Below, piece by piece: positions 3 to 47,352 of a DNA stretch of 64,000 bases. The notes beneath the pieces are model-generated. The model was not told the origin of the DNA, ran no database searches, and was given only the letters and a program-made list of their open reading frames with translations. Numbering within the stretch: position 1 is the first letter of the stretch; each line of letters opens with the position of its first letter. Origin of the DNA: Candidatus Omnitrophota bacterium (GTDB lineage Bacteria > Omnitrophota > Gorgyraeia > 2-01-FULL-45-10 > JAHFGN01); NCBI GenBank assembly GCA_023247415.1, contig JAHFGN010000001.1, positions 10,062 to 74,061 on the forward strand. The letters run 5' to 3'. The position numbers were made by a program, and so were the translations under genes.

Positions 3-3000
3 GACGTCGTAAACGGCGTTCCTCTTTCTCCAATCGGCGCCGGCCGCGCAACCTCAAGCGAAACGCGGGATTCTACGACGGGAACGGAAAAGAAAGCCCC
101 AATCGCAACACATAAACGCGTTGAAAGGATCCGAGCGGCATTAAAGGAGTTCGGCGGCAGCGTGGGGTCCGCACAAGCAAAGGGCATTTTTAAAAAACAT
201 GGTCTATCGTGGGATGTGGAGAGAAAATTTGTTAAAGCGTTGCTCGCCGCGCAAGATAGATACAGGCCTCTTGGCGCGAGGCTCAAGCTGTCCGCACTGC
301 CATCAGAGCTCGCGGCAGGAGAGTGGCTTAAATCACTAAGCGGGCTTGAAACTAAGGATGCCCAATTGCGTAAAAAGGCTTCCAAAAAGTCGATTACGCC
401 ATCCAAGGAAGCGAAGGCGAAAGAGAAAGCGCTCGAAATCCTCGAGGCCCTAACCGTAAACAATGTCAACTCGATTATAGGCGAAATGCAAGAAGTGGAG
501 AAAATCGCAAATATAGGTCTGTCAGGGCTCCTATCCGAATATTTAGGTAAAGAGCTCAAACATATTTCCGAAAATGGACCATACGACCCGTATATAGATG
601 TCATGATACAGATTAAGGCCGGGTCATTCAATCCTTTTAACGAAAGAGATGTTGCGGCCCTGCTTGACCTTGTGAGGGGATTAGAATATTCAAAAGAATG
701 GCTCGATTCAACAACGAAAAAGGTAGCAGAGCTTAAGAAAGAGGTAAAAGATATTCGGAAAGCCCTGAAGGCGCCTGCGCTGTCAGTTGATGGCTATGTC
801 AGGCAAGAGGTAGAAAGGGACGATCTCAAAAAGAGAATTAACTTTTTGGAGACTTATCTGGAAACGCTTAAAAAAGGACCCGCATCCAAAGATGCCAGCC
901 GCGACAGCGCAAGCGGGGCGCGGGATTCTACGGCGGGGGGATTGGCCGAACAGCAGGAAGGAAATCGCGCGGACCTGGCGGCGCTGATAGGGGATTATTT
1001 TGAAGAAACGGGCACTACAGAATCAAGGTATATGGATGCGCTTATAGAAATAGCTTCTTCTATGTCTGGAAAACATCTAAATAATATCATTCGGTGCTTA
1101 GCAGACGAGAAACCGCGTGACTTAAATCAGCTTAGGCTGGAGAAAGTCTTGAGCAGCCCAACGCCTTTAGATAGCGCCATATTTAATACAGCTATCACTA
1201 TAATAAAACAAGCGATGTCTACGGCTGAGGATATCTCTGCTGAAATACGCAGACTCAGCAACGGAGATCAAGTTAGAATAAATAAATCGCAGGAATTAAG
1301 CAATAGAATTTTGAAATTGGCCTATGGAAGCAATCCGCAAAAGTTTATGTTATCAGAAGAATTTAAGGGTCTGGTAGACAAGCGCATTTCCGAGAAGAAG
1401 CAAGCGCACGGCAAAGAACGACTCGTGCATGAGCGCGGCACCACGAGCGGCACGGCGGATATATTGGATAAGGCCAAGGCGAATTTGAACGGCCCAAATA
1501 GCGGAATAGTGAATATATATCCGAATAGGGCTAAATTGGGCAAGGCCGAGGCGGAGGATGTCGCCTCTGAGCTGAGGCGGCTCATTAAGGAAAAAGGCAA
1601 AGCCGTTCTGGTCTTCGCCGCAGCGCCGTCGCAGAATGAATTTTTAGACGCGCTGGCGCAAGAGAAAGATATAGGCTGGTCCAAGGTGGTCGCGTTTCAT
1701 CTGGATGAGTATTTCGAACTTCAGCGCGGCCATAAGAATACATTCGAGGTATATCTCAATGACCGCCTCTTCAATAGACTGGCTGCAAAGCCCAAGGTCT
1801 ACTTTATAAAAGATTTGAGCGGCACGCCTGAAGAGATCTGCGCTAAATACGGTGAGCTCATTATGGAAGAAGGCGGGATAGATATAGCCTGCATCGGCGA
1901 AGGCGAGAACGCGCATATAGCGTTCAACGATCCAGGGGCGCTATTTTTTGATGACAAGTTGGTCAGGGTAGTTGCGATGGATGAGATGTGCAGACGCCAG
2001 CAATTCAGGGATTATGCGAACGACCCTGATCCTGAGAAACGTTATAAGACGCTGGAAGATGTGCCGCGCCGGGCCATCACATTGACCATTCCAGCAATCC
2101 TCTCTGCCGGCAGGATATTCTGCTCTGTGCCGGCAATCTCGAAGCAATATGCTGTTAGAAGCTCGATATTGGGGCCGGTTACTCACGCATATCCAGCCAG
2201 CCTATTGAAGAGGCATGAATATGTAAGGTACTATTTTGACAGGGACTCAAGCCTCCTGCTTGGCATGGATTTTGAGCAGGACAAGACCCTCAGCTTTACA
2301 ATCCCGCAGAAGACCAGGGTAGACCATAAGGTTATCGAGCGGTCTGTAAGGTTTGAAAATCTGCCCAGCGCGAAGAGAGTAGCAGTGATAGATTATGATG
2401 GTGAAGCCGCAGGCGGATGTTATGGTCTGATCAGGCGATTGCAATCGATGGGTAACGATGTTGTAATCTATGCGACAAATGGCCTCCCGGATCATATAAG
2501 AACTCTGCAGAACTCTCTTATATACTACAACCCGGAAGTCATCCTCTTTCCCGATAGAACGGACAAGCGGCCTGGGGTTAAGGCGATCGCCACTTTGGTA
2601 GATACTATAATGATAAGTAAGATTTGGGGAGGGAAGAAGGATCTGACACTTATCGAATATGAGACGAGCGGCGCGGCGCTTGGTAATAATCTGTTCCATA
2701 TACTCACAGAAGCCGCTTATACGATGAAGTCGTTTGCGATAAATGCCTATCAATCCCAGCTTAGAAGGCTGAGGTTTGACCTTGTTGCTGACGCGGCCAT
2801 GGCAGTCAATATGGCTAAATTGAGATCGCTGGGCGCAATTCCATATGACGCGGAGGGAGACTATGCGGAGGTCTTTGACCTCGTATATTTTAATAATGGG
2901 CAGCGCTCAAGACCCGACGGCGTAAAGGGATTGAGCAAATTAAATATGAAAAATGGCCATGCCGTCTCTTTATTGCCGCACTATGACGATGAGCTCTCCA

Positions 3001-6000
3001 TCGCCGGGTTAGTGAACGAATTTCTTAATAATGGATTTGACATCACGCCTCTGTATATGACGACAGGCCACCGCGCCGCTATTGTGGATAAGGATGGAAG
3101 GCCGGTTAGCGATAAAGAAGAAAGGGTTAGGATTAGAGAAGCTGAGGCGCTCGAGGCTAACAAGAGGCTCGGGATTAAGACATTGCCGCAATTCCTGCGA
3201 TTTGGTTTTTATGACAGACCACCAGATGCGGACGGAAATCGCGTGGTTAGCGATGAAGAGAAAAAAAGGGTATATGGATTGATCAAATCTGAGTACGCGG
3301 AATTCAAAAAAAGCGGCAAGAAAGAGTCCTTTGTAATATTCGCGCCTCAGGCCAACGATGCCCATCCTGACCATAGGGCGACGCACGATATCGGGACTCA
3401 GGCAGCGGAGAGGCTGTCGAAGGAAGAAAGCGCCAAGATAGCAGTAATATACTATAAAGGAGCGTGGGCTGAAAATTTCAATGCCTACAGCTATATGGAT
3501 GACAAGATTGTTGATGGGAAATTGGGCCAGCCGGTCATGCCAAGCAAAATGCGCGCAAGCCTATTTTCAGGGCTTTTAAACGCGCTCGTTGCGCCGGAAC
3601 TCGTTTCGCTAAAAGGCCACGGTTCAATGCCGCTTAAGCCGGAGCAGTTAGGCGGAGGTTCCGCGGAGAGGTTTAAAGTCACGTATGTAGAACCCAAAGG
3701 AAAAGTTGTTACGCCGAAGGAGGCGTTTATCTTCGTCGACCCCAGCCCGCGCGCGAACGCGAGCGGCACGGCGCCGAAAGGAAAAGAAGAATATTTCTCG
3801 GCAAGGTGTCTGAAGATGGGAGTCAACCCAGCGATTGCAAGCGAGCTCGTCGGATTTATTGAGCCGGAAGGACGTGTCATACTCTCTGATATGATCGCGG
3901 ATCTGAGAAGAAGACGTATAATAGCAGCTGACAGAGCGAATAACAATGACGGTGAGATTATAAAGACGGTGACAGGAAGCAGGACGTTCGGATTTGAAAC
4001 GGTTAAGGCCATCGTGTTCCTTTTGAATGAGAAAGGCCTTTTGACGCCGGTAATCCAAAAAGGCGATAAGAGAAAGTTGGAACTTATATCCACCCACTTT
4101 ATAATCAGCGACAGGCTGCGCAGGGACATGAAACCGCAAGAGAGATTTGACAGCGCGTATCGTATATTGCAGGTGCACAACCCTAAGCTGGCAGTAAAAT
4201 TGAATAGTCTGCGCGGTTTAATTGGCAAGTCCAGAGATTCGAAGATATTCGCGTCTTTGGACAGTTTAGGTCTAACACAGGATGAAAAGATGGTCCTGCT
4301 CCCGGCATTCAGCAATTTTTCCGGCGCGCGTAGCAGCGCGAACGGTGCGCTGATTGGAAGGGCGAGCCCCTATTTTATAGGTATGAGCATGGGCGGGACC
4401 AAGCTGACCGTGATGTTATATAGAATGATAGACGGAAAACCCGAGGCGCTTTACAGCAATAGCTTTATATGGAAGGACTTGCTGAAGCTGGATGACGAAA
4501 GGGATATAGCCGGTCCTAATAAAGATTTGGCAGACACCATCGTCTCAAGGATCGCTGAAATAGTGCGGGATATTCTCAAGACATATGAGCTGGGGATAAA
4601 TAATCTGAACAATATCGGCTGTACCTCGCCTGGGCCGCTCGATGCCGAAACAGGGGTTATCGGGACCGAGTGCAGGACATTCAATATGCCCTTCGATAAG
4701 TATCCGTTTGTGGCGCAGCTGAAAGAGGCGCTTGGGACAGAATTTGTCGATATAAGACATGATTCCCACGCGAGCCTCGAAGCGGAGACAGCATTTGGCG
4801 CGCTCTCTCGAGTCGCTAACGGCTATTACGTAATCCAGGGGACAGGCCTCGGCGGATCGCCGTCTGTGAATGAGAGATATTATACGGAGGTGCCGGAGCT
4901 GACAGAGCCCGGGCATCATATTGTAGGCGCGCCCGATCCATTAAGTCGAAATAAGAGGGGGTACCATTTCAGATTTATACAAAAATATGGCAAAGGCCAT
5001 CCTTATGAGGTGGTTGCAGAGCCGGATCCAAATAAGGAGTATCAGATTAAAGAAAAGGAGGCAGAAGAATTAATAGCATCCGGTAAATACCGAAAAGAAG
5101 ATTTCATCTGGACAATAGAGGGCGAAAAAGACTTCGAAGACATAGTTGCCGGCGTGGGCCTTATTCCCATGCTGAAAGATAAGAATAGGCTCGCTTCAAT
5201 GTTTGGCGGAAAAACAGCCGATTATTCAGGCATAAACGAGCCAAAAGACCTCTCGGAATTGGCTATAAATGGTTCTGAAAATGAAAAATATATAGCTCAG
5301 ATGATGATTATGTATATTGCAGAGCAGGTAGGCAGGGGTTTAGCGTCTCTCATAGCCGCTTCAAATAGGAAGGAATGGCAGCTGCGGAAGATTGTCATGG
5401 GCTCTACCATAGGTGAGAGATTGGGAATCGATTCCAAGGGCAAGATACTCTTGACGCGAGAAGGGAAGGACTTCTACTATTACCGGATCAATGAATGCGC
5501 GAAATTTGAACTTACCAGCGAATTTGGCTGGTCTGACGAGTCCGCGAATTTAATATCTATAGTGCGCTCGAACCTTACGCAGGCCGAGAGGGAGACAGCC
5601 GGATTCAACCGGCAGGAAGCGGAGACAGGCCGGGCAACTCCTAAAGAGCGAACTTCAACCTCAGGATTGAAACCGTCATATCAGGATGTCAAATCTATCG
5701 TTAAAAAAGGCAATAAGGAAGAAATAGCGGCTGTGTTGAAGCGCATCTTGACAGGTGGGGCATCCAGTGTAGACATTGAAGGCCTCTTTAAAGAGTTGAC
5801 GCCAGGCGAGGCCGGATTCCTCTTAAATATAATCATGACTACAACGGAGCTCACACCTCTAATCCCAGCGCGTATCCAACGGTCAGAGCGGATTCGAAAA
5901 GGGTTGGCAGCAATCAACGAAGTAGTTAAGAGTCCGGGGATGATAGCGCCTGCGCAGATAGCGGATTTAGTTAATCTATATCGAGATACCGGCGGCAAGA

Positions 6001-9000
6001 TACGCGTTTCAGGGGTTGAGGCCCAGCACCTCGTCCACTTCTATTCCACCTGTCCGACAGATGTGAAGAACGGACTGCTTAAAGACGCCCTCTTTAGAGA
6101 GTTATTCGCTATGGCCAACCTCGAATGGTTCTTCCTGAAATCCCCAAATCTGGACAGGCGCCATTACGAGGCTACAATAACTTTGGATGAGAATAATCCA
6201 TTAAAACCCGTAAAGGTAGAATACTGGCAGACGCAGGCGCAGGGGACGATGCAGGCGCCAGCGGCAAGATCAAAGGCTAATATCAACTATGGAAAAGGTG
6301 CTCATAACTACAAGGAGAATGGCGGAAAGACACCCTCACCTCAAGATATCAGCGAAAACGATCAGGTTAGCCGCCTTATAGCGTTCATAAATAACGCCGT
6401 GAGTACAGGAGAGGATCTGGGTCAGATATTGGATCACCCTGTCGCGACAGTGCGCGCTATGGGCCGAGGAGCATTTGGATACCACGAGGCTAAGACAGAG
6501 GCAGACAGTGCTGAAAAAATGGCAGATCAAGAATTATATGGATATCTTGCGAAGGTAGACAATCCCGCTGTGATAGGATCAGTACTCAAAAAAATAAGGA
6601 TGCCCATGATATCCGCGCAGAGAGACGTGTCTGAAGGCGGCTCCACATCGCCTGCGATGCGGGTTGCATACAGTAATGCTTATCTCGCCTTAGTCAAAAG
6701 GCGTGAAGAACTTCTTGGCAGACCTGGCTTGGAGTTAAATATAGCATGGAGCTTATATCTTTATAAGTTTAGCGTAAATAGTTACTGTAACAGATATACA
6801 GACGAGCAAAAGCAAGAGAGGATGAAAGAGGAAAAGGGACGCGCCGCAGTCAAGGATGATACGGTGGCAGTGTTCGGGGAGAATTATACACAAGAAGAGG
6901 CGCATAAACAAATAGATGCTGCAGAAGCGCTTGGATACCATGCTCTGATAATCTTTGATCCCAGGAATGGCCGCATAGTAGACTTCGGCCCAACTCAAAA
7001 AGAGATTATGCAGGTAAGTGGGTTGAAGATGCAGGCGCAAAGCGCTTTTTCTTCAACCGAGGAGCGAGACGAGATGATTGCCCTCATAGCCTTCTTAATA
7101 GACCCGACGAAACGCCTTGGTCTCGATAGCTACTCTTTGAAACCAGAATCGCCTGGCGCCATAGCTAATATAAGAGAATCCCTCAAAGCTCTTCTATCAA
7201 ATGACATAGATGCAGCGATTACAAGTTTAGGCAAGGGGATCGAGGCGTTGGAAGCGTGGATAAAGAATACTGCGGTTAACAAGCGGGGCAAAGAGGGAGA
7301 CGAGTTTATGCTTCCAATCGCAAAGCGTAGAAAACTGCAGCTTGAGAACTTCCTGCTGCTTAAGTCGACGCTTTCAACACACCCTGTGATCGGCATATTA
7401 AGCCGTGTCGCAGGTCTAAAAACCGAAGAGATTTTGAAATTTTGTATAAAGAGCGAAATCACATTAGATGATTTAAAACCAAACGGTATCCGGCTTGCCG
7501 CATTCTTAAAAGTGATCGCAGAGAACATGCACCATTTCTCCGGACTTAAAACGAGAGTTCGTTATTCACTCTGTCTTCCGCCAAACGGCAAAACCATATC
7601 CTTCTTAGAACTTCTATTCGGCGAATCGGATGAACGAAGCAGCTTAAAAGGGTTACGCGTTGAACGCGGAGATTCAGCTTGTAAGTATTTTATGGGTAGC
7701 GAGCCATTCCCAGGCAACGAGGCCAAATCCTTCTTGGGCGAAGAGCTGTATGAGGTGGGGGGGCTGGGCAACGCTATGGAAAGATTAAAGGCTATGCCGG
7801 ATGTCAATGACCCGTGGCTTTATATGAGAGCACCAGAAGAATGGAAGTCAGGCGACGTCGGCGCGCAGACTCATGCGGCAGGAATCAAAGGCCTCGATCG
7901 GCATGCAGCGCCGAATTTCGAAGAGGCGTTCGAGGCTCAGATTGAGGCGTTGAGCGGCTTATTGTCAGAATTTGATAGATCGGATTTTTTGCAAAGCCAT
8001 GATTGGGCAGTGCCAGCGGTAATCGCCATCCAAAGCGCATTATTGACCGCTGGATATAATACGAAAGAGCAGATCGATAGATTGGACGAATTACTACAGG
8101 ATGTATATAAGTTAAAGGGCCTACGATACAACTTATTATACAAATATATAATTATCGAGGCCCATGAAGCACTGTTAGGGGCAGGGCACAATCGCCAGGC
8201 ACAAATAGAGAAGTTTGAAAGCGTGCTGAAGGAAGTTACAGCTGACTACTCTGATACCATGATAGTGACCAGAATTCTAAGCGCGTTGATAAGGGGCCGT
8301 CACAATGTAGATGAGAACCACCGCAGGTTGATTGAGGTTGTGTCAGAAAAAGATAAGCCAGGCCCCAAATTTTTAGAGCTCATCTATGAAAGAATAACTA
8401 TGCGCGGCGCGCTGTTAGACGCTGGTTACAAACCAGAAGAGCAGATAAAGATTCTCCTCGAAGAGTTGTCGAAGGTCGACCAGCCAGCCTGGACGGATTT
8501 TAAAAGTGGAGAGATAATAAAAGCGAGAAATGCATTGTTGATGGCTGGTTATAAACCGGAAGAGCAGATCGCCAGATTGAGTGAGATATTGTCGCTGGTA
8601 AACGAGCCAAATCGGCGAAATGATTATATATTCGATATAATCGCCGTCCGCGGCGCTTTATTGCTCTATGCGGCCAAGGCGAAAGGCCGGCTTACCGAGC
8701 GCTTTAGTGCCAGCGGAGAGAACGGAGCGATTGCAGAAATTGCCGCGGTCGTGAAAGAGGCAGGTCTGGAAATTCCTACGCATCCGGGCGAGCGATATAC
8801 CCTGCTTCTGCCGTTTGAGTTTTTCGCCAACGGAGAGTTTGAGGCGCAAAAAGCTAATTATGGAGACAGGTTCAATATCAACAGGGCAAACGGCGCTGAT
8901 AACATCTTGGCGAAGGCAAGAGGCCTTGAGAATAGAACTATAGCCCTTGTGCCGAATGATATGCCCGAGGAAGGGCTCAAGAGGCTGGCAGATGCTGGTC

Positions 9001-38159: not shown

Positions 38160-40931
38160 ATGAAAATACAACATCCAAAACATATGCAAAAGACGATATC
38201 GATATTGTTGATACTGACATTCCTTCCCTATAATCTAGCATTTGCGCTCGCGCCGTCTTATGTCTCCAGGCCTTTCGGCAAAGAGGACCCGCGGAGCGCC
38301 AAGCAGGCCGAGATATTAGCGACGGCAAAGAAGGCTCTGGCAGTCAAGATGGAGCGGCGTTTGTACGAGCTGCAGAAAAAGACCGCGCCTCAAGATTATC
38401 TGCCCGCGGGACTTCGTCTGGCCGCAAGCGGCGGCTCGAATGGCGGGAATGTCGCAGGGCCGTTTACGCTGAAGGAAGCGAAAGAAGCAATCAATGTCAT
38501 AAATGTTGTTAAGAGTAGGACTGCAGCCGCGCCCCGCGGCTCGAAGGCAGGCGGCGCTCCAGGTTCTGCTAAGGCTGGCGTTTCGCCTGAAGAGGCATTG
38601 AAGGCGATGGCAGATGAGTATCTGGACCGATTTAGGCAATATATGTTAACTCTCCACCCCGTCACTCGTAACATACTTATAAAAAAGAGAACGGCGATGA
38701 TAAGACAGGCCTTGAAATGCGCAAACGATGATCCAAGGGATGCGCTTACACTACTGCAAAATAGTTTGAGCGAATGTGAAATGTGGGAAAAGCTGCGAGA
38801 GGTTTCGCTGATGCAAACAGAAAGAAAAGAAGTAGAGGCCTCTATCCGGGAGATGGCAGCGCAGAATGAGGCAGCTGGAGACCAGACCGCAGTTACAATC
38901 CTCGGCGAAGACGGCAAGGCCATAACTGGTCAGAACAGGCAGGCCCAGGCCGGCCGCGACGCGAGGGGCGGCGGAACGCCTGAAGCGGCGACTGGGTCTA
39001 ATATCGTGCTCCTACAATACCCGTCCAAGCCGACACTGGATGCATATTTTGATGCCCGTTCTGGAGGCGATGGAGAAACATTGAAAAAGGCGAGGGACAA
39101 GGCGGCAAAACAGGCAGTTGCCGCAACATCTAAATTGGATCCAACAGGCAGGCAAGCTCTGTCATTAGTATTGAATCTTATGGAGCAGAGAGGGTGGGAC
39201 GTCAATCAGGACCGCCGTGAATTCGAAGCGCTAAGCAGTAGAATTGACTATTGGACCAATAAGTTTTCGCCTAAGTCTCAACAAGCAAAAAAGATTGTCC
39301 CCGCTAATAGAAGAGAGCTGATAAAAGCAGCCAAAGATAGCGGGTTTCCTGATAATATCAGGCAGGATTTTGAGCGCAAGCAGCGTGGTATACAGCTTCT
39401 ACAGGTGAGGCAATTGAGGGATGGTGAGGTCGTGTTGATATATTCTACCGGATATCCAGTGATGGAGAATATGGCAAGTGGTAGTTTCACGACTATTTGC
39501 TACACACTGCTTCATTCAGATGGAAAATATCATATGCTTCCGGTCAGCTATCACAATACCAGCAAAGGGCTGGAGGCATCCATAGACTTAGATGATGTGG
39601 TGGAGGGTATTAAATATCGCGATCTCATAATAAGGAGCAGGTTGTTGGCCGGCACAGAAGAGCCGTTATTATGGAAAGCGCTTGGGAGTGCGGCCGATAT
39701 AGTTGATATGGCTGTCAGACAAAATGTTCAATTAGGTGAATCGCCATCCCCTGAAATAGTCCGCGGCTCAAAGGCCGGCATTGCCGCGCTGCCTGCCGCG
39801 CCGGTCGTCTCGCCGGCAGGGAGATTCGCGGATGGATACAAGACCTGGGGGGAGGTGCCGGGGATAAATGTATTTACCTTCTATCCGCGGGAAGGGGAGA
39901 GAGTTTATGTCATGTTCTTGAGCGACGCTGAAAGGAATGACCCTACTCTCCCCTCGCATGGCAGAGCGGATTTCAGTAACGGCCAGTTCGCGGCATATGT
40001 GATGCAAAAAGACATCGTGCATTCGGCTCAAAGAGTACCGATGCCTGAGGTTTGCAATAAAGTTATCGCGTTCCTAAAAAATGCGACAACAGGAAGCAAA
40101 GACTTATATGCGCGCAGGACAGTAGAACATGAATATGTAATAGGTTCAACGAAAATTGGGGAGATCGCGGCCATCTTCGCTGAAAAAGGAAAGATAACCG
40201 TAACCTTCGGCGATAGACAGGAGGAATTCTCCGACACTGCCGCCGCAGCCCAGGTTCGCGAGGCCAATAGCGGAATCGCGGAGCGCAATATCGCTGTGGA
40301 TTGGAGAAGCTATCACGAAGCCCGGGCGGCTGAATTCAGATCCGGGCTTATTCGCACGTTGACTGAACATCCTGATAAAGAATTTGTCCTGGCTGTTGAT
40401 ACTGACATCGGAGGCGCGCATAAGGCTCAAATCATGCCGATATGGAATGCGTTCGATGATATCAGAAAGCTCGCCTACAAAGACGGCAAGCCGCTATTTC
40501 CGAATCTGTCAATAATAAGGGGGGCCGGCCTCACCCTCGCGTCGAAGATAGCTAGAGCCAGAAACGAGAAGAGTGTTGACTTAGGCAGTATCTTCGTCGT
40601 CGCCAAAAAGGCCAATGTTGACAATAGGGCCTTTGAGCCGCTTACAGGGGCGTGGATAGCCGCGATAGACGATTCAGCGGCCGGCGAAGGCGTCTACATG
40701 CCTGTATTTGAGGCCGCGACAATCACGATGATGGCCGCGCTGAATGTCGATTCGGCCGCCATCAAGACGTTCTGCGACTCTATAACCGACAAGCCGATAG
40801 ACCCTAAAGCCATAGACGAATTTAAACGCGGCAGGATCCTGTATCTGATGCCGAGGGCAGCGAGATTCGACACAGAAAAAGCCCTCCGCGACGTCTACGA
40901 ACTCGCGAGGATTACGTATACAGCGGCGTAA
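38160..40931 (+). CDS. Giant-family protein (923 aa) with family leader and C-module but no recognisable enzyme domain
   Basis: The leader is 'MQKTISILLILTFLPYNLAFALAPSYVSRP'. The C-terminus 'RILYLMPRAARFDTEKALRDVYELARITYTAA' matches the family C-module signature. Confidence 0.65.
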   Translation: MKIQHPKHMQKTISILLILTFLPYNLAFALAPSYVSRPFGKEDPRSAKQAEILATAKKALAVKMERRLYELQKKTAPQDYLPAGLRLAASGGSNGGNVAGPFTLKEAKEAINVINVVKSRTAAAPRGSKAGGAPGSAKAGVSPEEALKAMADEYLDRFRQYMLTLHPVTRNILIKKRTAMIRQALKCANDDPRDALTLLQNSLSECEMWEKLREVSLMQTERKEVEASIREMAAQNEAAGDQTAVTILGEDGKAITGQNRQAQAGRDARGGGTPEAATGSNIVLLQYPSKPTLDAYFDARSGGDGETLKKARDKAAKQAVAATSKLDPTGRQALSLVLNLMEQRGWDVNQDRREFEALSSRIDYWTNKFSPKSQQAKKIVPANRRELIKAAKDSGFPDNIRQDFERKQRGIQLLQVRQLRDGEVVLIYSTGYPVMENMASGSFTTICYTLLHSDGKYHMLPVSYHNTSKGLEASIDLDDVVEGIKYRDLIIRSRLLAGTEEPLLWKALGSAADIVDMAVRQNVQLGESPSPEIVRGSKAGIAALPAAPVVSPAGRFADGYKTWGEVPGINVFTFYPREGERVYVMFLSDAERNDPTLPSHGRADFSNGQFAAYVMQKDIVHSAQRVPMPEVCNKVIAFLKNATTGSKDLYARRTVEHEYVIGSTKIGEIAAIFAEKGKITVTFGDRQEEFSDTAAAAQVREANSGIAERNIAVDWRSYHEARAAEFRSGLIRTLTEHPDKEFVLAVDTDIGGAHKAQIMPIWNAFDDIRKLAYKDGKPLFPNLSIIRGAGLTLASKIARARNEKSVDLGSIFVVAKKANVDNRAFEPLTGAWIAAIDDSAAGEGVYMPVFEAATITMMAALNVDSAAIKTFCDSITDKPIDPKAIDEFKRGRILYLMPRAARFDTEKALRDVYELARITYTAA

Positions 40932-40947: not shown

Positions 40948-41022
40948 TCCCCTCACCCTACCCTCTCCCCATGACCGTAGGGCAGACTTAAGTCTGCCCT
41001 ACGGCTCCCTGGGAGAGGGTAG
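40948..41022. repeat. PAL-family copy 3
   Basis: 'cccctcaccctaccctctccccatgaccgtagggcagacttaagtctgccctacggctccctgggagagggtag'. Confidence 0.7.
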
Positions 41023-41037: not shown

Positions 41038-44000
41038 ATGCGTTCGCATTTCACGCTCAAAATCATCTCGCTCGTATTAATCCCCACTTTCCTCTTCTCA
41101 AACCTGACATTCGCGCAAGGCCCGGACCAGGAGAATAAAAATACCCGGACATTAGCGCCCCATTCCATATTCAAGCTTCGCGACAGCGGCAAGAATGGAA
41201 ACGCGAATCTCGACGAACGCGCGGAGCGTGTCTGGGCCGATATGCGGAAGACAACTGCCAGAAGCCTCGCCGGAAAAATGGCAAGACGCCTCGCCGAGAT
41301 GCGGGAGCGCGGGATCAGCGTCACAGCCCAGGCCGGCCAGGAGATATTAGCCAACCAGATTAATGTTTTGTCCAGAAGGAACGGCGTATTGCCGGACGCA
41401 AAACTGATCAGGGCGGTAGGGGAGCGCCTCGCTGCGAGCGGAACCGAAACAGCAGAGAGGGCTGGATTTATCGCGCAGCGCGTGGCTGTCGTAGGGGATT
41501 CCGAGCGGACGCGCCTTGTGATCCCGGAATTGGTGAAGAACGGGATAGTTGTCGCGGCGTGGGCCGCAGATACGCCGCCGTCTAAGAGGTTGAATTTTAT
41601 GGCGAGGAGCGCGACACACGATGTATACGGCCCAAAATATATCACCATCATCGGCGATATGGCAAGGGAGAATATCGTCTTGAAGATAGGCCAGCAAAGC
41701 ACGCATATACGTCCGCTTGTCTTTAGACCGGGCAGGGGGACTAAATCTTCCAATAAGTTGATAGAAGTCCTGGCTGGCATGCAGGTGGATACAGTAGTTT
41801 TAGACAGCCCGGGATTAGTTGACGAGGAAGAACTTGTTAAGAGGGGAATCCACGTTGTAGTGATGGACAAAGAGGCGGAGCCGGACAGCAAGGTTGTGCC
41901 AATCGCCGCTATCGCGAATCAGGCGGCGTTTCATATTGGTCAAGCCTTCCGGGAATTGGCCCAGAAGCAGAAGAAAGTCGCCGAGGTTCAATTTGCCCAA
42001 TTAAAGGTGATAGAGCCCAATGGCTCATCTTTCCCGGCCACCCACAGCAATCGAAGCGCGGCTGAACCCAATGTGACGCAGACCAAAGATTATCAGAAAG
42101 AGCTGCGTGAAGGATTGGGCATCTCTGGCGAAGACGGCGCCCGCGTTCTGGAGACTATCCGATTTGGCTACCCCATCCCCGAGGGGCTCATCATAAACGC
42201 CACAATAGCGATGAATCGCGATGTCGATGCCAACGAAGTGCGGGCCCATCTCATCGATTTGGCTAAACGCGACGGCTTTTTTAAAATTCTGGAGGATGAT
42301 CCCCTGACCAATACGAGGCGTGTGGTGGCTGATTCAGGCGTCCAGCTTTACAGCGAGCCGCTTGTTCAGACGACTGACGACGGACGAAGCCTGATCCAGG
42401 TGAGCTTTATCGCGGATCCTCTTACCACACAGGTCGAGCAATTAGTTCAGATACTGCAGGGCAAAAACCGCCCGCGTATTTCAGACGCTATTATACAATA
42501 CGAGGAGATACGCGCGGAGATAGAGACGCCGCCTCAAGAAGCTCAACTCGCGGATGCCCTCAAGACAGACCTGGCTAATAATGAGGTAGCGAAACTCGCG
42601 GAGAGGTTCAAAAGAAGATGGGGTGTCACAGAGACCAAGAGGCTGCTTCGCAAAAAGGAGATTGAACCGGAAGATGCTGCCTTCATCCTCTTTGGCAGGA
42701 AAAAGGAGGATTTTACCTCATTCGAATTTTTAGAAGACGCCGCTCATAACCGCATCGGGCTTATGGCCATTTCAGGGAGCGGAGATATCTGGGCCACAAC
42801 GCTCCTTACCCCTGTTGAGCCCGAACAGGTCGCGCCTCTGCAGAAGAATTATTATGACGCCCTCCGTCAGCATGCCATGCGGAAAATATATAGCCGGGTG
42901 CGCGATGTCTATCATCCGGCAGAACGGCTGTCCTGCGTATGGCAGATCGAGTCAGAAAATAGATTCATTCTACGAGAGGTTCTGCAGGTTCAGCCAGATG
43001 GCGCGGATAAGGTCTTATCGCGTCCAATGACGGCATTTAACCCGTTTGCGGCCGACGAGTTAGGCGTCTTCGTGAATGGCGCAGGCGGCCGCATTGGAAG
43101 CGAGGTAGCGCGCATCATAGCCGGAGATGAGATAGATCCGAAGGAAGGCCTTGCGCCGCGGCTCTCCGGGAAACTTGTCCTCATAGGCCTTGGGGTATCT
43201 GATTTTGAAGAAGAGAATGGAAGAGTGTGGGGCGGTGAAGGGTTTGTCAGGCTTATACGACAGGGGGAAGACCTTTCGAGCGGGCCTTTTAGCGGCAAGG
43301 TCAGGCATGGCCATGAAGATGGCAGGGGAGAGGATTGGGTTGAACTGACAGATAAGAGAGGAAAGACAGTCAGGGTCCCTGTATTCAGCGATCTGATATT
43401 CAGAAACCCTGAGAATTATCCGCTCGTCTCATTCCTGTTCGCAGGCGTGCCCATAGCGGCTCTAGATGGGACAGGACTGAAGGAACTTACTGAGCGTTCA
43501 GGTTTAAGCAAGTATTTGTGGGCAGGGGCTGACCGCGTAACACTTCCAAACCCGGGGGCCTCCCAAGAGGACCATTGGAAGACCCATACCTTTATATACG
43601 GCGTCAATGACAAGGAATTTCATGCGACGAAGAAGATGACCTCAACAGCCTCCTGCACTACAGCCGCGGCAGCGACTCTGGCCAAGAAGATCCTGCGCGT
43701 GGCAGCCTGCGTCCTTGCCGGCGCGGAGCTTCCAGACCACCTGAAGGATGAATATATGAATCAGGCAGCAGGCATACTGCTGACAGGCCATCCATACACA
43801 CGCGATGAAGTGCTTGGCGATGAGGGCAATTACGATATGAGTGCGAAGAATCAATCTAGACAGGTCGCAAAAGGCGCCGCATACGGCGGTCCCACTGGCG
43901 CGGCGAAGACAGCGTCTCTGGTGCTTCCGGAGGTGAAGGCAACGGGCGAGGCGATTCGGGGGCCATGGCTTACCGGCTCTGTGTTAAGCTATGTGATGGA

Positions 44001-47000
44001 TGTGCCGGGCCATTTGAAATTAGAAGATTTGCTGCGTCTCCTTAAAGAAGACGAAGCCGTAAAAAGCGGCAGGGGACGCGCCCCTGCGTTCAAGCTCGCC
44101 AAAGGCGTGTCGAGCTCCGCCCATATCCGGCGCGCATCTGGAGAACTTGCCGCCTACAGCGCTGTGCTCGATGAGACCCATATACAGATTGTTCATACAA
44201 AAGACAACTTCGGCAGGCCCAGGTCAATAATATCCACCCTGGCATGGTATGAGAATGAGTGGGGATTTTCTGTTGGGGTCGCGCGGTTCCTCGATGATGT
44301 GGTGCGGCCAGGCTCAGCGCTTGAGGCGCAGCCGGATTTGAGGCTCGATAGATTTCCAGAAAGACTCTCCGCTATTCCAGAGGAGGAGAACGCAAGGGAA
44401 GAGGGCGCGCTCTATTCTGACCGCGTCTATTTGGACCAGATGAGCGAAGTAGAGTTAGAGAGGATTTTTAAAGACAAAACCGTGTTTGTGAAGGCGGATT
44501 ACAATATAGTGCAGCCTGTATCTAAGGATAAAGGCGGCGGCAAATTTGAAGATGAGGCAGAGATAATAGAAGACTTCCGGATTCTCGCGACCCTTTCTGA
44601 TATACAGCGCCTGCGCAAGGCAGGGGCTAAGATAGTCTTGGCTTCGCATAACGGCAGGTTCAGAGACATCGTGAAGAATAGGGCAGGATACACGCTTGAG
44701 CCTGTCGCAAAGCGCCTCTCCGAGCTCTTGGGTATAGAGGTGAAGTTCTCTCCCGAGACTGTAGGCCAGAATGCCATGGACAAGGTTGATTCGCTAAAGG
44801 AGGGGGATGTCCTCCTGCTTGAAAATCTAAGGAATAACCCTGCGGAAGAGGACGGCAGCCCAGGATACGCGGAGGAGATTGCTGAGACGGTGAGGCCGGA
44901 TGCCTACGTGTTCCTCGCCTTCGGAGCAGCCCATCGCGGAAAACACGCCTCCATAAGCCCGCTGATAGATTATCTTCGAGCGAAGCGTCCCGGCATACCT
45001 GTAATCGGAGGAGGGATTATCCGCAAAGAGCTGGAAGGGCTAAAGAAGTTTCTTACCCACAACAAAGAGGAGGAGACATCTGTCGCGATTCTTGGCGGCG
45101 CGAAGATAGAGGATAAGATAGAGGTGATGCGGAAGCTGATATCGAACAGGATGATTGACAAGATCGCTGTTGTCGGCGCGATGTCGTTCTATTTTTACCT
45201 CGCCAAAGGATACAGCGTCGGCAACTCATTCTTAGATGACAATATTCAGGATGCGGTGAGGTCGACTCAGCTGGCATTCGAGATCATGCTCCTGGCAGAA
45301 GAGAACGGTGTGGAGATTGTGCTGCCTAAAGGTTACCGGGGCCTCTTGCATCGTTCCATCGACAAGACAAAACCCGTTCATATAAAAGACGGCGAGCTAA
45401 AGAGGTTTCCGATGGGAAAAGAGGGCCTGCCCCCAGAGTTCTATGCCTACAGCGTGGATCAGGATACGGTTGATGAAATTGTCAAGATGTGCAAACAGGC
45501 GATGTGGATTATTGTCAATGGGACAGCAGGGGTGGTGGAGATCGATGCCTTTCGATATGAGAACGATCTCATCCTGCATGCTGTGCATAATGAGGTGGAT
45601 TTGTTACCTGGGACAAGAGCGGTGATATTGGGAGGGGACGGTGTCGCGGCATTTAGTAGATGGGCGGAGAATAGATGGGGAGAAGAATATCTCGCTAAAG
45701 TCCAGGATACGGGATACACGCTCTCGACAGGCGGCGGCGCCAGCCTGGAGTTCTTATCGCGTCTGGTCTTGAGCGGTCTTGAGCCCTTGGATTTTAAGGT
45801 CCGGAAGCGAGGCGCGAGGGGGAAGACAGGAAAGATCGGCCTTTATGGAAATCTCAAGCGGCGTATCCACACTCAAGAAGGCCTTCGAAACCATCTCAAG
45901 GATATCGTCGCAAGCGCCAGGGCAGTCGAAGGGGTAGACAATATCGAGGTCGTCATATTCGTCCCCTCTGACCTTGCCAATGATAAAGAGCTGGTCGAAA
46001 TCGTAAAGGGCTCGCCTGTTAAACTCGGTGTTCAGAATATAAGGCTTGAAAGCGAAGAAGACAGTCCTGAACTGACTGCTGAAGAGGCGAAGGCCCTCGG
46101 CTTTACGCATGTCATGATAGGCCATTCAGATATGAGAAGCGGCTCGCTCACGTTGGACCGCAGGCCGCAGACGAATCAGGATGTCAATGCGCGGTTGCGC
46201 GCAACCCTCAAAGCCGGGCTCATCCCGCTGTTTCTGTTTGGGGAGACCCTCGATGCGCGTTTGAGGGAGATCGCGGATTCAAACCAGAGATGGAAGTTCA
46301 TCGATAAGCAGCTGCGCGAAGGGATGGAAGGCGTGGCAGGAGAAGAGGCCGGCAATATCCTATTTGGTTTAGAGCCTGTTTGGGCCATAGGAAAACAGGC
46401 TGCCAGCCCATTTTACGCCAATGTCCAGCTTAGGCATGCGCGTAGGGTTCTGGCAGACATCTTTGGGGAAGGGACAGCCAGGCAGCTTGCCCTGGGCTAT
46501 GGCGGCGGCACAAATGAACGGAATATAATCTCCTACATCTCCGGCGAGAGTGATCTGGTGGTCCCTGGCCGGCCTTCTGCTGATGCCAGGTCTTTTTCAG
46601 AGATGATTACGCAGACAGTAAGATTTTCCAAGGAGCATTGCGCGGGCCGTTCGTCCACGAACGGCAGCAGACCAGCGCGCGACTCGACAAACGGGCTGTC
46701 TGCTGAAGCGATAAAGGAGCAATCGACCGTGCCTGATACCGAGGCATTGAAAAAGCTTCTCGTGTCGCTTGGGTTGTATGCGAAGGAGACTGAACGCGGC
46801 GCTGTCATAGTCGCGTTTGATACCGGCATCTTCCCTGTCAATGTCTCATCTGTGCTGAAGGCCGGTAAAGACGGCATAAACCGCTATCTTGAAGGCAAGG
46901 TTATTGATATACGGGCCCAAGGCCCTGATCTTCTCACTAAGATACAAGATGAGATAGGCCGGCTGAAAGGCGCTGGCATACCATTGGCCGGAGTGGTTGC

Positions 47001-47352
47001 AATAGCCGGCGACGCTACGGTTGAGGCTATGCGCAGCCAGCCGTTAGAACTGGAGGCAGGCAAAGTAGCAGTTATAAATGTCCAGAAGCCTGAGAATAGA
47101 TACATACCGGTAATAGGCCTATACGACCTCGCGTTGAGGATAGTATATAATCCTGATGATAAGCCTGCCATTCTCGAGTGCCTGAAGCAAATAGCCTTAA
47201 ATCCGGATAACAAGCCGTTTGGGTTGGATGATGTTGAGGAGTTGTTAAAGAGCCGCATCATCAGGATACTGCCGAAGATAATACCGATGGATATGGACTT
47301 AACAATCCGCGAGGCCTACAGAGCCGCGCAGGCCGCCCTCACCGCGCTGTAA
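41038..47352 (+). CDS. Giant-family protein (2104 aa): signal peptide, TLAP N-domain, contiguous GAPDH-like, phosphoglycerate kinase and triosephosphate isomerase domains, family C-module
   Basis: 'VFVNGAGGRIGSEVARI', 'STASCTT' and 'WYENEWGFSVGVARFLDDV' are GAPDH motifs. 'LASHNGRF', 'AILGGAKIEDKIEVM' and 'TGGGASLEFL' are PGK motifs. 'GNLK', 'VMIGHSDMR', 'FLFGETL', 'EPVWAIGKQ' and 'LGYGGGT' are TIM motifs. The C-terminus is 'RIIRILPKIIPMDMDLTIREAYRAAQAALTAL'. Confidence 0.85.
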   Translation: MRSHFTLKIISLVLIPTFLFSNLTFAQGPDQENKNTRTLAPHSIFKLRDSGKNGNANLDERAERVWADMRKTTARSLAGKMARRLAEMRERGISVTAQAGQEILANQINVLSRRNGVLPDAKLIRAVGERLAASGTETAERAGFIAQRVAVVGDSERTRLVIPELVKNGIVVAAWAADTPPSKRLNFMARSATHDVYGPKYITIIGDMARENIVLKIGQQSTHIRPLVFRPGRGTKSSNKLIEVLAGMQVDTVVLDSPGLVDEEELVKRGIHVVVMDKEAEPDSKVVPIAAIANQAAFHIGQAFRELAQKQKKVAEVQFAQLKVIEPNGSSFPATHSNRSAAEPNVTQTKDYQKELREGLGISGEDGARVLETIRFGYPIPEGLIINATIAMNRDVDANEVRAHLIDLAKRDGFFKILEDDPLTNTRRVVADSGVQLYSEPLVQTTDDGRSLIQVSFIADPLTTQVEQLVQILQGKNRPRISDAIIQYEEIRAEIETPPQEAQLADALKTDLANNEVAKLAERFKRRWGVTETKRLLRKKEIEPEDAAFILFGRKKEDFTSFEFLEDAAHNRIGLMAISGSGDIWATTLLTPVEPEQVAPLQKNYYDALRQHAMRKIYSRVRDVYHPAERLSCVWQIESENRFILREVLQVQPDGADKVLSRPMTAFNPFAADELGVFVNGAGGRIGSEVARIIAGDEIDPKEGLAPRLSGKLVLIGLGVSDFEEENGRVWGGEGFVRLIRQGEDLSSGPFSGKVRHGHEDGRGEDWVELTDKRGKTVRVPVFSDLIFRNPENYPLVSFLFAGVPIAALDGTGLKELTERSGLSKYLWAGADRVTLPNPGASQEDHWKTHTFIYGVNDKEFHATKKMTSTASCTTAAAATLAKKILRVAACVLAGAELPDHLKDEYMNQAAGILLTGHPYTRDEVLGDEGNYDMSAKNQSRQVAKGAAYGGPTGAAKTASLVLPEVKATGEAIRGPWLTGSVLSYVMDVPGHLKLEDLLRLLKEDEAVKSGRGRAPAFKLAKGVSSSAHIRRASGELAAYSAVLDETHIQIVHTKDNFGRPRSIISTLAWYENEWGFSVGVARFLDDVVRPGSALEAQPDLRLDRFPERLSAIPEEENAREEGALYSDRVYLDQMSEVELERIFKDKTVFVKADYNIVQPVSKDKGGGKFEDEAEIIEDFRILATLSDIQRLRKAGAKIVLASHNGRFRDIVKNRAGYTLEPVAKRLSELLGIEVKFSPETVGQNAMDKVDSLKEGDVLLLENLRNNPAEEDGSPGYAEEIAETVRPDAYVFLAFGAAHRGKHASISPLIDYLRAKRPGIPVIGGGIIRKELEGLKKFLTHNKEEETSVAILGGAKIEDKIEVMRKLISNRMIDKIAVVGAMSFYFYLAKGYSVGNSFLDDNIQDAVRSTQLAFEIMLLAEENGVEIVLPKGYRGLLHRSIDKTKPVHIKDGELKRFPMGKEGLPPEFYAYSVDQDTVDEIVKMCKQAMWIIVNGTAGVVEIDAFRYENDLILHAVHNEVDLLPGTRAVILGGDGVAAFSRWAENRWGEEYLAKVQDTGYTLSTGGGASLEFLSRLVLSGLEPLDFKVRKRGARGKTGKIGLYGNLKRRIHTQEGLRNHLKDIVASARAVEGVDNIEVVIFVPSDLANDKELVEIVKGSPVKLGVQNIRLESEEDSPELTAEEAKALGFTHVMIGHSDMRSGSLTLDRRPQTNQDVNARLRATLKAGLIPLFLFGETLDARLREIADSNQRWKFIDKQLREGMEGVAGEEAGNILFGLEPVWAIGKQAASPFYANVQLRHARRVLADIFGEGTARQLALGYGGGTNERNIISYISGESDLVVPGRPSADARSFSEMITQTVRFSKEHCAGRSSTNGSRPARDSTNGLSAEAIKEQSTVPDTEALKKLLVSLGLYAKETERGAVIVAFDTGIFPVNVSSVLKAGKDGINRYLEGKVIDIRAQGPDLLTKIQDEIGRLKGAGIPLAGVVAIAGDATVEAMRSQPLELEAGKVAVINVQKPENRYIPVIGLYDLALRIVYNPDDKPAILECLKQIALNPDNKPFGLDDVEELLKSRIIRILPKIIPMDMDLTIREAYRAAQAALTAL

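Follow-up and report, generated by a model that had tools for sequence, protein, structure and literature searches.

The occurrence of enzymes of cytoplasmic type behind secretion-type leaders raises the question of whether such proteins are catalytically active and on which side of the membrane they would work. The question is posed by a locus of Candidatus Omnitrophota, within a stretch of 64,000 nucleotides (the window), where seven neighbouring paralogous genes (G1 to G7), all on the + strand, encode proteins of 923-3784 aa. Each consists of a secretion-type leader and a diverged sugar-phosphate enzyme cargo, with the exception of G6, whose cargo has no detectable domain. Domains were assigned by Pfam and NCBIfam profile searches, with E-values far beyond chance, and comprise two GlcN6P deaminases (NagB), an LmbE-type deacetylase, a ROK kinase, a PFK, a weak class-I-aldolase-like barrel, a GAPDH-PGK-TIM series, a histidine phosphatase, an FBP aldolase/phosphatase (FBPA/P), a PGDH-like dehydrogenase and a GT5 half domain. 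Five of the seven paralogs carry a clear C-terminal alpha/beta module of ~190 aa, which is weaker in G1 and G2. The features are as follows.

L005 1318-1370: fourth copy of the promoter-like sequence and 5' element, preceding G1
1..9332, + strand: G1, 3' 9.3 kb of the gene (full protein 3784 aa)
1524-2213, + strand: G1 NagB-like domain (Glucosamine_iso, E 3e-11)
2970-3404, + strand: G1 PIG-L/LmbE deacetylase (E 4e-12)
4452-4925, + strand: G1 ROK kinase (E 4e-8)
18894..18944, + strand: promoter-like TTGACT-N16-TATACT and shared 5' element AATGTGGTTTAGGGTTAATAAAA, preceding G2
18960..22124, + strand: G2, 1054 aa; leader MKKIIIILAIAAFLSSNIALA, LAP next
19839-20444, + strand: G2 GT5 (starch-synthase-like) N-terminal half (Glyco_transf_5, E 6e-8)
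22271..22321, + strand: same promoter-like sequence and 5' element, TTGACA-N16-TATACT-TATGTGGTTTTAAGTTAATAAAA, preceding G3
22359..28316, + strand: G3, 1985 aa; leader 22359-22436
22752-23219 and 23823-24407, + strand: G3 PFK (E 6e-31), split by a ~200-aa insert
25059-25757, + strand: G3 class-I-aldolase-like barrel, weak, tagatose-bisphosphate-aldolase-like (NCBIfam 1.5e-9)
27243-27692, + strand: G3 HEAT repeats (Pfam)
27690-28313, + strand: G3 C-terminal module
28329..32033, + strand: G4, 1234 aa; leader ...LLVLVFLLNDLGFA; C-terminal module present
28806-29327, + strand: G4 histidine-phosphatase domain (His_Phos_1, E 4e-19)
32114..32165, + strand: same promoter-like sequence and 5' element, preceding G5
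32216..38104, + strand: G5, 1962 aa; leader MVSGRRLFLKVIALALVPTFISSSITFA
32672-33826, + strand: G5 NagB (TIGR00502, E 2e-50), split by an insert; D/D-H/E residues intact
36029-37321, + strand: G5 bifunctional FBP aldolase/phosphatase (FBPase_3, E 4e-46); Schiff-base Lys/Tyr/Asp intact
38160..40931, + strand: G6, 923 aa; leader MKIQHPKHMQKTISILLILTFLPYNLAFA, LAP immediately after
41038..47352, + strand: G7, 2104 aa; leader 41038-41115; about 640 aa unannotated
43063-44307, + strand: G7 GAPDH (TIGR01534, E 8e-24)
44467-45792, + strand: G7 PGK (E 7e-69)
45847-46626, + strand: G7 TIM (E 1.5e-21)
46714-47349, + strand: G7 C-terminal module

Four transcription units thus share a consensus promoter-like sequence and 5' element. 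G1 (L005 1405-12759) begins ~2,022 nt before the window, and the mechanical ORF start at 162 was rejected, as was that of G5 at 32039 in favour of the ATG at 32216 behind an AAGGAG site; the start of G4 is uncertain, the public gene call beginning 20 codons later. The upstream part of G1 holds the leader MTTKLLNKLVSLILIPTFLSSDLAFA and the PGDH-like 2-hydroxyacid dehydrogenase, and the window adds, besides the three listed domains, about 1,100 aa lacking annotation and a C-terminal module that matches weakly. G2 ends in a divergent tail, and its GT5 half domain has no PDB relative found by sequence. G5 also ends in the C-terminal module; in G6, whose module is of an 'AWIAAIDDS' subtype, neither domain nor homologue was detectable over about 650 aa. 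An orthologue of G7 in another metagenome has 53% identity and an identical architecture. Recognisable domains are missing for about two thirds of the residues of the seven paralogs, and no further enzyme domains emerged when about 6,600 residues lacking annotation were rescanned with Pfam at relaxed thresholds.

The core observation of a preliminary description of this DNA, namely giant paralogs with sugar-metabolism domains behind secretion-type leaders, is borne out by the profile matches and the seven leaders, and several of its details require revision. Neither the C-terminal module common to the paralogs nor the HEAT repeats figured in its domain list, and the FBP aldolase/phosphatase and the dehydrogenase of G1 were likewise overlooked; the enolase and pyruvate kinase that it suspected might lie upstream in G1 give way to a leader and a dehydrogenase; its 'glucan phosphorylase-like' domain is the N-terminal half of a GT5 (starch/glycogen synthase) domain, as indicated by the Glyco_transf_5 match; and its 'PGAM-like' domain in G4 has as nearest solved relatives the phosphatases PhoE and PspA, rather than mutases.

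The C-terminal module defines a rare family, an exhaustive HMMER search of 1.84 billion proteins having returned 297 clusters, in all of which it sits at the extreme C-terminus. Among family members of at least 600 aa, 85 of 107 have a leader of the same kind, and the cargo of 77 long members again consists throughout of cytoplasm-type enzymes: PGM/PMM, GPI/PGI, UDPGP, PFK, PGK, TIM, GAPDH, three FBPase types, ROK, GT1/GT5, inositol monophosphatase and others. Two members bear the label Candidatus Omnitrophota, and one is annotated 'glucose-6-phosphate isomerase family protein'. The locus is best explained as seven paralogous members of a rare Omnitrophota-associated family, whose plan runs from a conserved Sec-type leader through a short 'L-A-P' motif and amphipathic helix to a variable cargo of sugar-phosphate enzymes of cytoplasmic type, separated by long unannotated stretches, and finally to the ~190-aa module.

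Catalytic motifs are kept in the PGK (R/H-R/R/GGAK..DK/E/GGD/STGGGASLE), GAPDH (NGxGRIG, SCTT Cys, His, WYENEWG) and TIM (N-x-K, His, EPVWAIG) of G7, in the FBPA/P of G5 (KAD, H, DD, Q, DK, Y..KDD), in the G5 NagB and G1 PIG-L domains (HxDD, HPDH) and in the PFK of G3 (PKSIDND and MGR). Key residues are changed in the GT5 domain (the KxGGL Lys is replaced), the ROK kinase (its zinc-Cys motif is absent), the G4 phosphatase (THG where RHG is expected) and the G1 NagB (D to N), and every enzyme domain misses its NCBIfam equivalog cut-off by a wide margin (PGK/TIM 336 vs 883, GAPDH 84 vs 367). The earlier suggestion of degenerate enzymes therefore holds only for GT5, the ROK zinc motif and the RHG to THG change, and fails for PGK, GAPDH, TIM, FBPA/P, G5 NagB and PIG-L, whose residues are intact. 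Judged by residue conservation, these intact sets, including a nucleophilic GAPDH Cys in Cys-poor proteins, would be hard to explain otherwise than by selection for catalysis. The proposed consecutive steps from GlcNAc to 3-phosphoglycerate prove even tighter than had been claimed, with deacetylase, kinase and deaminase together in G1 and GAPDH-PGK-TIM in G7. The roughly 84 kb covered, out of a contig of 194,841 bp, contained no stand-alone glycolytic genes.

All seven leaders consist of a basic n-region, a hydrophobic core of 12-15 residues and a small-x-small end (AFA/ALA/TFA/GFA), and are followed by the conserved "LAP" motif and an early mature region that is neutral or acidic. The position of the positive charge N-terminal of the core, with a neutral or acidic downstream flank, predicts an N-in/C-out orientation in which the bulk of the protein lies outside, and no second TM-like or hydrophobic segment was found beyond the leader in the seven proteins. 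Cysteine makes up 0.39% of the giants, as against 1.21% of 23 neighbouring proteins (Fisher p = 2e-11), and 0.41% family-wide. Taken together, the leader features, the lack of other hydrophobic segments and the threefold Cys depletion favour real export. The preliminary description had considered periplasmic or extracellular catalysis implausible, a view weakened by leaders that lack no sequence feature of a cleavable Sec signal, by Cys depletion relative to cytoplasmic neighbours and by the recurrence of the leader, enzyme and tail architecture across the whole family. Against export, however, stand ATP, NAD+ and the family-wide SAM and NAD(P), which are not expected beyond the cytoplasm; nothing points to a route by which exported enzymes would be supplied with cofactors, and the window has no linked secretion system or partner gene. 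The leader is also conserved far beyond ordinary signal peptides, so that another role, as an anchor or targeting peptide, is possible.

We tentatively prefer, with a probability of roughly 45%, the reading in which the leaders are real export signals and the proteins are active multi-enzyme assemblies working outside the cytoplasm. The leader would thread them across the inner membrane, to act in the periplasm, at the cell surface or facing prey; the enzymes would convert amino-sugar, glucan and hexose-phosphate substrates to 3-phosphoglycerate, and in reverse via the FBP aldolase/phosphatase and GT5 domain, and export, retention or assembly would fall to the shared N- and C-terminal modules.

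It is doubtful, although it is the strongest of the rivals, that the N-terminus is instead an uncleaved anchor or targeting helix, tethering a cytoplasm-facing metabolon that provides all or part of the cell's hexose and amino-sugar entry and glycolysis. Such an arrangement would suit the cofactor-dependent cytoplasmic cargo, the mostly intact catalytic residues and a leader unusually conserved among otherwise unalignable paralogs, and a cytoplasm-facing reading is weighed for TM-only giants in a 2026 preprint (bioRxiv 10.64898/2026.06.07.730766). The same preprint reports that, by KO calling, hexokinase (25/176) and GPI (67/176) are absent from most complete Omnitrophota genomes, which would fit upper steps hidden in diverged fusions, as does the family member annotated as a glucose-6-phosphate isomerase family protein. 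However, GAPDH, PGK and enolase are given there for 176/176 complete genomes at strict KO thresholds, below which the diverged domains would probably fall, so that the canonical genes of lower glycolysis are probably present alongside them; the predicted orientation, the Cys depletion and a short core with an AxA end, cleaved-signal-like rather than anchor-like, argue in the same direction.

Less probable still is export into a space that holds ATP and NAD, either the cytoplasm or lysate of prey or a glycosome-like internal membrane-bounded compartment. Export-type leaders and Cys depletion would be expected of such proteins, the steps from sugar kinase to PGK would be ATP-neutral, two kinases spending what PGK returns, and one predatory epibiont, Ca. 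Velamenicoccus archaeovorus, belongs to the Omnitrophota, its giant enzyme-bearing proteins having been proposed to act on prey; yet neither a delivery apparatus nor a pore-forming domain nor a compartment marker turned up at the locus or nearby, and it is not obvious that the NAD balance closes, the additional dehydrogenase being PGDH-like. Least probable of all are catalytically inert, 'moonlighting' surface or scaffold proteins, exported and structural, with enzyme folds recruited as sugar-binding, phosphosugar-binding or adhesive modules, which would accommodate the low scores, the inserts in PFK and NagB, the residue changes in GT5, ROK and G4, the HEAT repeats and the unrecognisable two thirds, but not the six full catalytic sets or a domain set that spells out successive steps of a pathway and is no random sample.

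Among known systems, the archaeal chitin/GlcNAc pathway of Thermococcus employs the LmbE-family deacetylase Dac, a glucosamine kinase and a GlcN6P deaminase. By its domains, G1 alone is a module of this kind, predicted to lead from GlcNAc through GlcN and GlcN6P to F6P with deacetylation before phosphorylation; it differs in that its kinase is ROK-type and not ADP-dependent, and in that the three enzymes, with predicted substrates, are fused in a single leader-bearing polypeptide. The kinetoplastid glycosome offers a functional analogy only, in the common targeting feature of enzymes from sugar kinase to PGK and their ATP neutrality; its PTS1/PTS2 signals are not homologous, the enzymes here are fused into megaproteins, and a compartment is part of the analogy alone. 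G7 resembles the Thermotoga-type bifunctional PGK-TIM fusion (NF010569), residues 1144-1857 matching positions 11-641 of 645 (E = 4e-100) in the same domain order, and both halves have Thermotoga maritima enzymes (1vpe, 1b9b) as their best solved relatives; in contrast, the unit scores 336 bits against the 883-bit cut-off and lies within a 2104-aa protein that also comprises a leader, 640 residues without annotation, a GAPDH domain ahead of the unit and the C-terminal module.

The closest parallel lies in the 'Archaeovorins' (West-Roberts et al. 2023, 10.1101/2023.11.21.568195) and the 'multi-enzyme metabolic cluster' long proteins (10.64898/2026.06.07.730766), for which the accessible parts of the two preprints describe signal peptides, HEAT repeats and starch-synthase (GT5-like), ROK, PGM/PMM, TIM, GPI, FBPase and aldolase domains, and explicitly discuss the same localisation paradox; members of the present family likewise bear the Candidatus Omnitrophota label. 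Sugar-metabolism domains in signal-peptide-bearing Omnitrophota giants are thus already known, and the present locus is a smaller, modular version: its proteins measure 0.9-3.8 kaa rather than at least 10 and up to 147 kaa, have a single N-terminal hydrophobic segment rather than dozens of TM helices, have no C39/S8 peptidase or SecA-like domains that could be found, and form a tandem paralog array with a common leader and C-terminal module, unmentioned in those parts of the preprints. To the domains listed there for Omnitrophota giant proteins, the locus adds GAPDH, PGK, PFK, NagB and LmbE.

The locus comprises seven paralogous large genes, G1 to G7, whose products of 923 to 3784 residues each combine a conserved secretion-type N-terminus (the leader), a cargo region and a C-terminal module. 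They are embedded in an ordinary diderm-bacterial chromosome, in which ilv, leu and aro genes, topA, xerC, kdtA and tsaBE are present, LPS genes adjoin the window on its downstream side, and the GC content is 0.48-0.54 throughout. G2 to G7 are contiguous, and nine housekeeping genes separate them from G1:

1-9332, + strand: G1, with its start about 2.0 kb upstream of the window; the complete protein has 3784 aa (contig sequence L005, 1405-12759)
18960-22124, + strand: G2, large ORF
22359-28316, + strand: G3, large ORF
28329-32033, + strand: G4, large ORF
32216-38104, + strand: G5, large ORF
38160-40931, + strand: G6, large ORF, no recognisable cargo
41038-47352, + strand: G7, large ORF

The mechanical ORF start of G5, a GTG at 32039, creates an extension that contains a hairpin (about 32041-32075) and a promoter; the true start is the ATG at 32216, which lies behind AAGGAG. 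The codon usage of the giant genes correlates with that of their neighbours (r = 0.89), so the genes are native and horizontal transfer was rejected, as was an assembly chimera, since the same genes are present on independent Logan contigs. GC3 is lower in the giant genes, at 0.52-0.59 vs 0.58-0.69 in the 23 other ORFs of the window. Neither Rfam nor tRNA models gave a match in the window. Mobile or defence genes flank the giant-gene blocks (9469-10861 and 47394-48002, - strand): immediately 3' of G1 there is a toxin gene of the AbiEii type, preceded by a small partner ORF, and an IS200/IS605-type Y1 transposase gene directly follows G7. Between G1 and G2 lies a gene for an Rce1-like (CPBP/CAAX-type) intramembrane protease (12361-13443), and in one ORF at 10864-12237 a complete TatD-type hydrolase domain is joined to a radical-SAM domain, an unusual pairing.

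Four giant-gene transcription units (G1, G2, G3-G4 and the unit that begins with G5) are preceded by a common near-consensus promoter, TTGAC(A/T)-N16-TATACT, and directly thereafter by a 5' element, (T/A)ATGTGG(C/T)TTTA(R)(R)(T/A)TTAA..., the whole taking the form TTGACA-N16-TATACT-TATGTGGYTTTA. The copies are as follows:

18894-18944: promoter and 5' element
22271-22321: promoter and 5' element
32114-32165: promoter and 5' element
1318-1370 of L005: promoter and 5' element

The window has no further copies of the motif, and the number expected by chance is 0. This common arrangement points to co-regulation of the giant-gene units; expression from so near-consensus a promoter is probably strong, and the motif could represent a regulatory site that the units share, or a 5'UTR. 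GC-rich hairpins 3' of G2, G4 and G6 (22168-22195, about 32041-32075 and about 40985-41010; e.g. GTAGGGGACATTTAAATGTCCCCTAC) suggest that the transcription units are G2, G3-G4, G5-G6 and G7.

The preliminary description had read the giant proteins as near-consecutive steps from GlcNAc or glucan to 3-phosphoglycerate. Pfam and NCBIfam, with matches at E-values far beyond chance, bear out most of the domains on which that reading was built: NagB-like, PIG-L/LmbE and ROK domains in G1; in G3 a PFK split by an insert of about 200 residues and a weakly matching class-I-aldolase-like barrel, to which HEAT repeats are added; a second NagB in G5; and GAPDH, PGK and TIM, in that order, in G7. G5 also carries a previously overlooked bifunctional FBP aldolase/phosphatase (FBPA/P; FBPase_3, E = 4e-46). 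Two labels did not hold. The supposed glucan phosphorylase of G2 is instead the N-terminal half of a GT5 starch/glycogen-synthase fold, with only profile positions 5-171 of 239 matched, an incomplete GT-B fold and a score of 36 bits against the GlgA cut-off of 328; a PDB sequence search with G2 gave no match, and glucan phosphorylase (GT35) has no Pfam, NCBIfam or PDB match in any of the seven proteins. The domain of G4 labelled PGAM is a histidine-phosphatase domain, closest to phosphatases (PhoE, PspA and CobC-type) and not to mutases: its best NCBIfam matches are ribazole and phosphoserine phosphatases, its best PDB matches the phosphatases PhoE and PspA, and a cofactor-dependent phosphoglycerate mutase was rejected both by this similarity and by a THG motif in place of RHG. 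The part of G1 upstream of the window, suggested as a possible site of enolase and pyruvate kinase, carries a PGDH-like 2-hydroxyacid dehydrogenase instead. About two thirds of the giant-protein residues have no assigned domain, and relaxed Pfam scans of some 6,600 unannotated residues revealed no enolase, pyruvate kinase or other enzyme. The aldolase-like region of G3 gave a marginal DUF2090 match only in a PDB sequence search, and AlphaFold, run on the G6 sequence alone, gave a model of too low confidence for use (pLDDT 38).

All of the enzyme domains score far below the curated NCBIfam equivalog cut-offs for whole proteins, which indicates that they are strongly diverged and carry inserts: 336 vs 883 for PGK/TIM, 84 vs 367 for GAPDH, 116 vs 431 for PFK, 172 (G5) and 102 (G1) vs 237 for NagB, and 153 vs 520 for FBPA/P. 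The preliminary description had raised the possibility of degenerate enzymes. Active sites were read from residue-level alignments to solved structures, the roles of the catalytic residues following established enzymology. In G7, the sites of PGK, GAPDH (NGxGRIG, the SCTT cysteine, histidine and WYENEWG) and TIM (N-x-K, His and EPVWAIG) are intact; so are those of FBPA/P (Schiff-base Lys, Tyr and all Asp/His/Gln ligands) and NagB in G5, and that of the G1 deacetylase (HxDD and HPDH). The PFK of G3 (22752-24407) is partly retained, keeping PKSIDND and MGR, with GGED as a variant motif. A lysine preceding a TIDND-type motif, as in PKSIDND, is a signature of PPi-dependent phosphofructokinases, and with such a dependence the pathway would need less ATP. 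Degeneracy thus does not describe the pathway core, and applies only at its edges: the GT5 motif of G2 reads NAGGGL, with the Lys of KxGGL replaced; the ROK domain of G1 has EPGH, the catalytic Asp and GTGLGG, lacks the CxCGxxGCxE zinc motif, and scores 19 bits vs 260 for the glucokinase subfamily; G4 has its THG; and the NagB of G1 carries D141N and E148D.

The observation is real, and with the labels corrected the pathway-like reading is sound. Judged by domain content, G1 alone could take GlcNAc through GlcN and GlcN6P to F6P, G3 could lead from F6P through FBP to the trioses, and G7 from triose phosphate to 3-phosphoglycerate, while FBPA/P and GT5 point the reverse way, in a gluconeogenic or glucan-forming direction.

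In a BLAST comparison of the seven paralogs, similarity is confined to two regions, the first 100 or so and the last 200 or so residues. The N-termini are strikingly alike (G1, KLVSLILIPTFLSSDLAFA; G7, KIISLVLIPTFLFSNLTFA; G3, KIVSLLLIPSFFASDIAFA), each having a basic n-region, a hydrophobic core of 12-15 residues that has a Pro at its centre, an end of the AxA type and a flank without net positive charge (neutral or acidic), as in MRSHFTLK-IISLVLIPTFLF-SNLTFA|QGPDQE of G7. Next come an 'L-A-P' motif, which in G1 reads L-A-A, and an amphipathic helix. All seven leaders have the sequence features of a cleavable Sec (SPase I) signal, namely a basic n-region, a hydrophobic core (7-15 residues being allowed), small residues at -3/-1 and a non-basic early mature region, and no TM-like segment is found in any of the seven beyond the N-terminal hydrophobic one. 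A Tat signal (S/T-R-R-x-F-L-K before the hydrophobic core) was rejected, as the RR motif appears in G5 only (SGRRLFLK), the other six proteins and most family members having single K/R residues or KK instead. A lipoprotein signal was rejected for want of a Cys at +1, and targeting to a BMC or encapsulin because the leader is uniformly of the hydrophobic signal type, not an amphipathic peptide, and no shell genes are present. Exported bacterial proteins are known to be low in cysteine; cysteine makes up 0.39% of the seven giants vs 1.21% of 23 neighbouring proteins (odds ratio 0.32, p = 2e-11), with 2 Cys in the 1962 residues of G5, and averages 0.41% in 150 family members from other metagenomes.

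The reading best supported by leader, composition and active-site residues, to which we assign a tentative probability of about 0.45, is that of a Sec-exported, catalytically competent multi-enzyme family that would work outside the cytoplasm. Should the leaders be genuine export signals and the enzymes active, central sugar metabolism would operate beyond the bacterial cytoplasm, either as a compartmentalised pathway or as metabolic effectors against prey, and the metabolic reconstruction of Omnitrophota and other ultrasmall epibionts would change. A tethered metabolon that faces the cytoplasm is appreciably less probable. More doubtful still is machinery aimed at prey or at a glycosome-like compartment, and similarly doubtful is a specific form in which the seven proteins would make up an extracytoplasmic glycolytic unit: ATP-neutral from sugar kinase to PGK, it would be carried by the common leader from the producer's cytoplasm into a glycosome-like internal compartment or into the cytoplasm or lysate of prey, and kept together by the common C-terminal module. 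An Omnitrophota-type bacterium would then run the conversion of GlcNAc or hexose to 3-phosphoglycerate outside its own cytosol. A role as inert binding modules is improbable.

The C-terminal module, an alpha/beta tail domain of about 190 residues, aligns clearly in G3 to G7 and weakly in G1 and G2, and ends in ...I-x-I-L-P-K...A-x-E-A-Y-x-A-A-x-x-A-L-x-S-L. Known sorting or assembly domains, recognised by a characteristic C-terminal fold or motif together with their cognate machinery in the vicinity, were rejected: the module does not correspond to a T9SS CTD, PEP-CTERM, LPXTG, dockerin, encapsulin cargo peptide or BMC encapsulation peptide. Word-indexed homologue searches are nearly blind to the family that shares it (3, 1 and 3 matches), and the exhaustive HMMER profile search against 1.84 billion representatives succeeded, giving 297 proteins, 186 of them below 1e-10, of up to 3815 aa and with the module always at the extreme C-terminus. 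A metagenome scan with an alignment (A5) gave 4 loci, and a scan of genome contigs with G7 found no close relative, only two unrelated GAPDH-like loci. Two module-sharing proteins, MDP3790568.1 and MFA5143646.1, carry the NCBI label Candidatus Omnitrophota bacterium.

The same kind of leader is present in 85 of the 107 members of at least 600 aa (mean n-region charge +2.7), and Pfam scans of 77 long members again revealed cytoplasm-type enzymes as cargo. PGM/PMM is the commonest (17 of the 38 longest members), accompanied by GPI/PGI, UDPGP, PFK, PGK, TIM, GAPDH and three kinds of FBPase, as well as ROK, PfkB, GT1/GT5, inositol monophosphatase, mannitol dehydrogenase, methyltransferases, glutamate dehydrogenase and HEAT/TPR repeats. 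An orthologue of G7 in another metagenome (53% identity) has the same leader, GAPDH-PGK-TIM order and tail; upstream of it on that contig (L007, 528-2429) is a gene for a 633-aa protein with the family tail (...IRIILPHAEPVSLKIEEYYRLTIMQLRESA) and no N-terminal leader. Many of the longest members (P0074, P0030, P0055, P0075, P0044 and others; alignment A2) have a conserved domain of about 520 residues between leader and cargo, of the pattern ...IVIPRDFGLVKSKF.G...IHIQDAHCNYEAQ...VLVTGGFHSEG..., which has no Pfam match. This domain ends in ...GMLAP, so that in either layout the cargo starts at 'LAP', and the motif might be a processing site.

Giant proteins of Omnitrophota provide the closest comparison. 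West-Roberts et al. 2023 (10.1101/2023.11.21.568195) describe 'Archaeovorins' whose predicted extracellular regions contain HEAT, GT5, TIM, GPI, FBPase, PGM and aldolase domains, and raise the same paradox of localisation. A 2026 preprint (10.64898/2026.06.07.730766) catalogues 916 Omnitrophota proteins of at least 10 kaa, 94% of them with a signal peptide or TM helices, gives a 'sugar metabolism' Pfam module of PF08323, GT1, PGM and ROK, and lists both extracellular-effector and cytoplasm-facing readings. According to the same preprint, 176 of 176 complete genomes have GAPDH, PGK and enolase that satisfy strict KO thresholds, while hexokinase and GPI are mostly absent; from these counts, canonical lower glycolysis probably coexists with proteins of the G1-G7 kind, and the upper steps may sit only in such proteins. 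Were they to face the cytoplasm, these proteins could account for the 'missing' upper-glycolysis genes, which surveys based on KO calls do not find in most Omnitrophota genomes. Either way the locus is experimentally tractable, as each unit has a defined leader and tail and a size of 1-4 kaa, vs 10-147 kaa for the giants in which the puzzle was first noted.

If the seven proteins do form an extracytoplasmic glycolytic unit, giant Omnitrophota proteins might be fused concatenations of leader-cargo-tail units; for the longer family members such concatenation was rejected, no internal copies being seen in 155 family sequences (no internal leaders and only one marginal internal module). Like the Archaeovorins and long proteins, G1 to G7 and their family place HEAT repeats, GT5/GT1 and sugar-phosphate enzyme domains behind a signal-peptide-type leader. 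Unlike them, they are 923-3784 aa long, vs at least 10,000 aa in the 2026 catalogue and at least 30,000 aa for 'giant' proteins in 2023; they have an N-terminal hydrophobic segment only, where giants have numerous TM helices; and the C39/S8 peptidase or SecA-like domains of the giants have no Pfam match in them. The locus is the same phenomenon on a smaller and modular scale, its units of 1-4 kaa standing in tandem and each having a single leader and a single tail. Because the proteins differ from the giants in length, in TM helices and in peptidase or SecA-like domains, the locus is placed as a variant of the Omnitrophota giants and not a member of their class.
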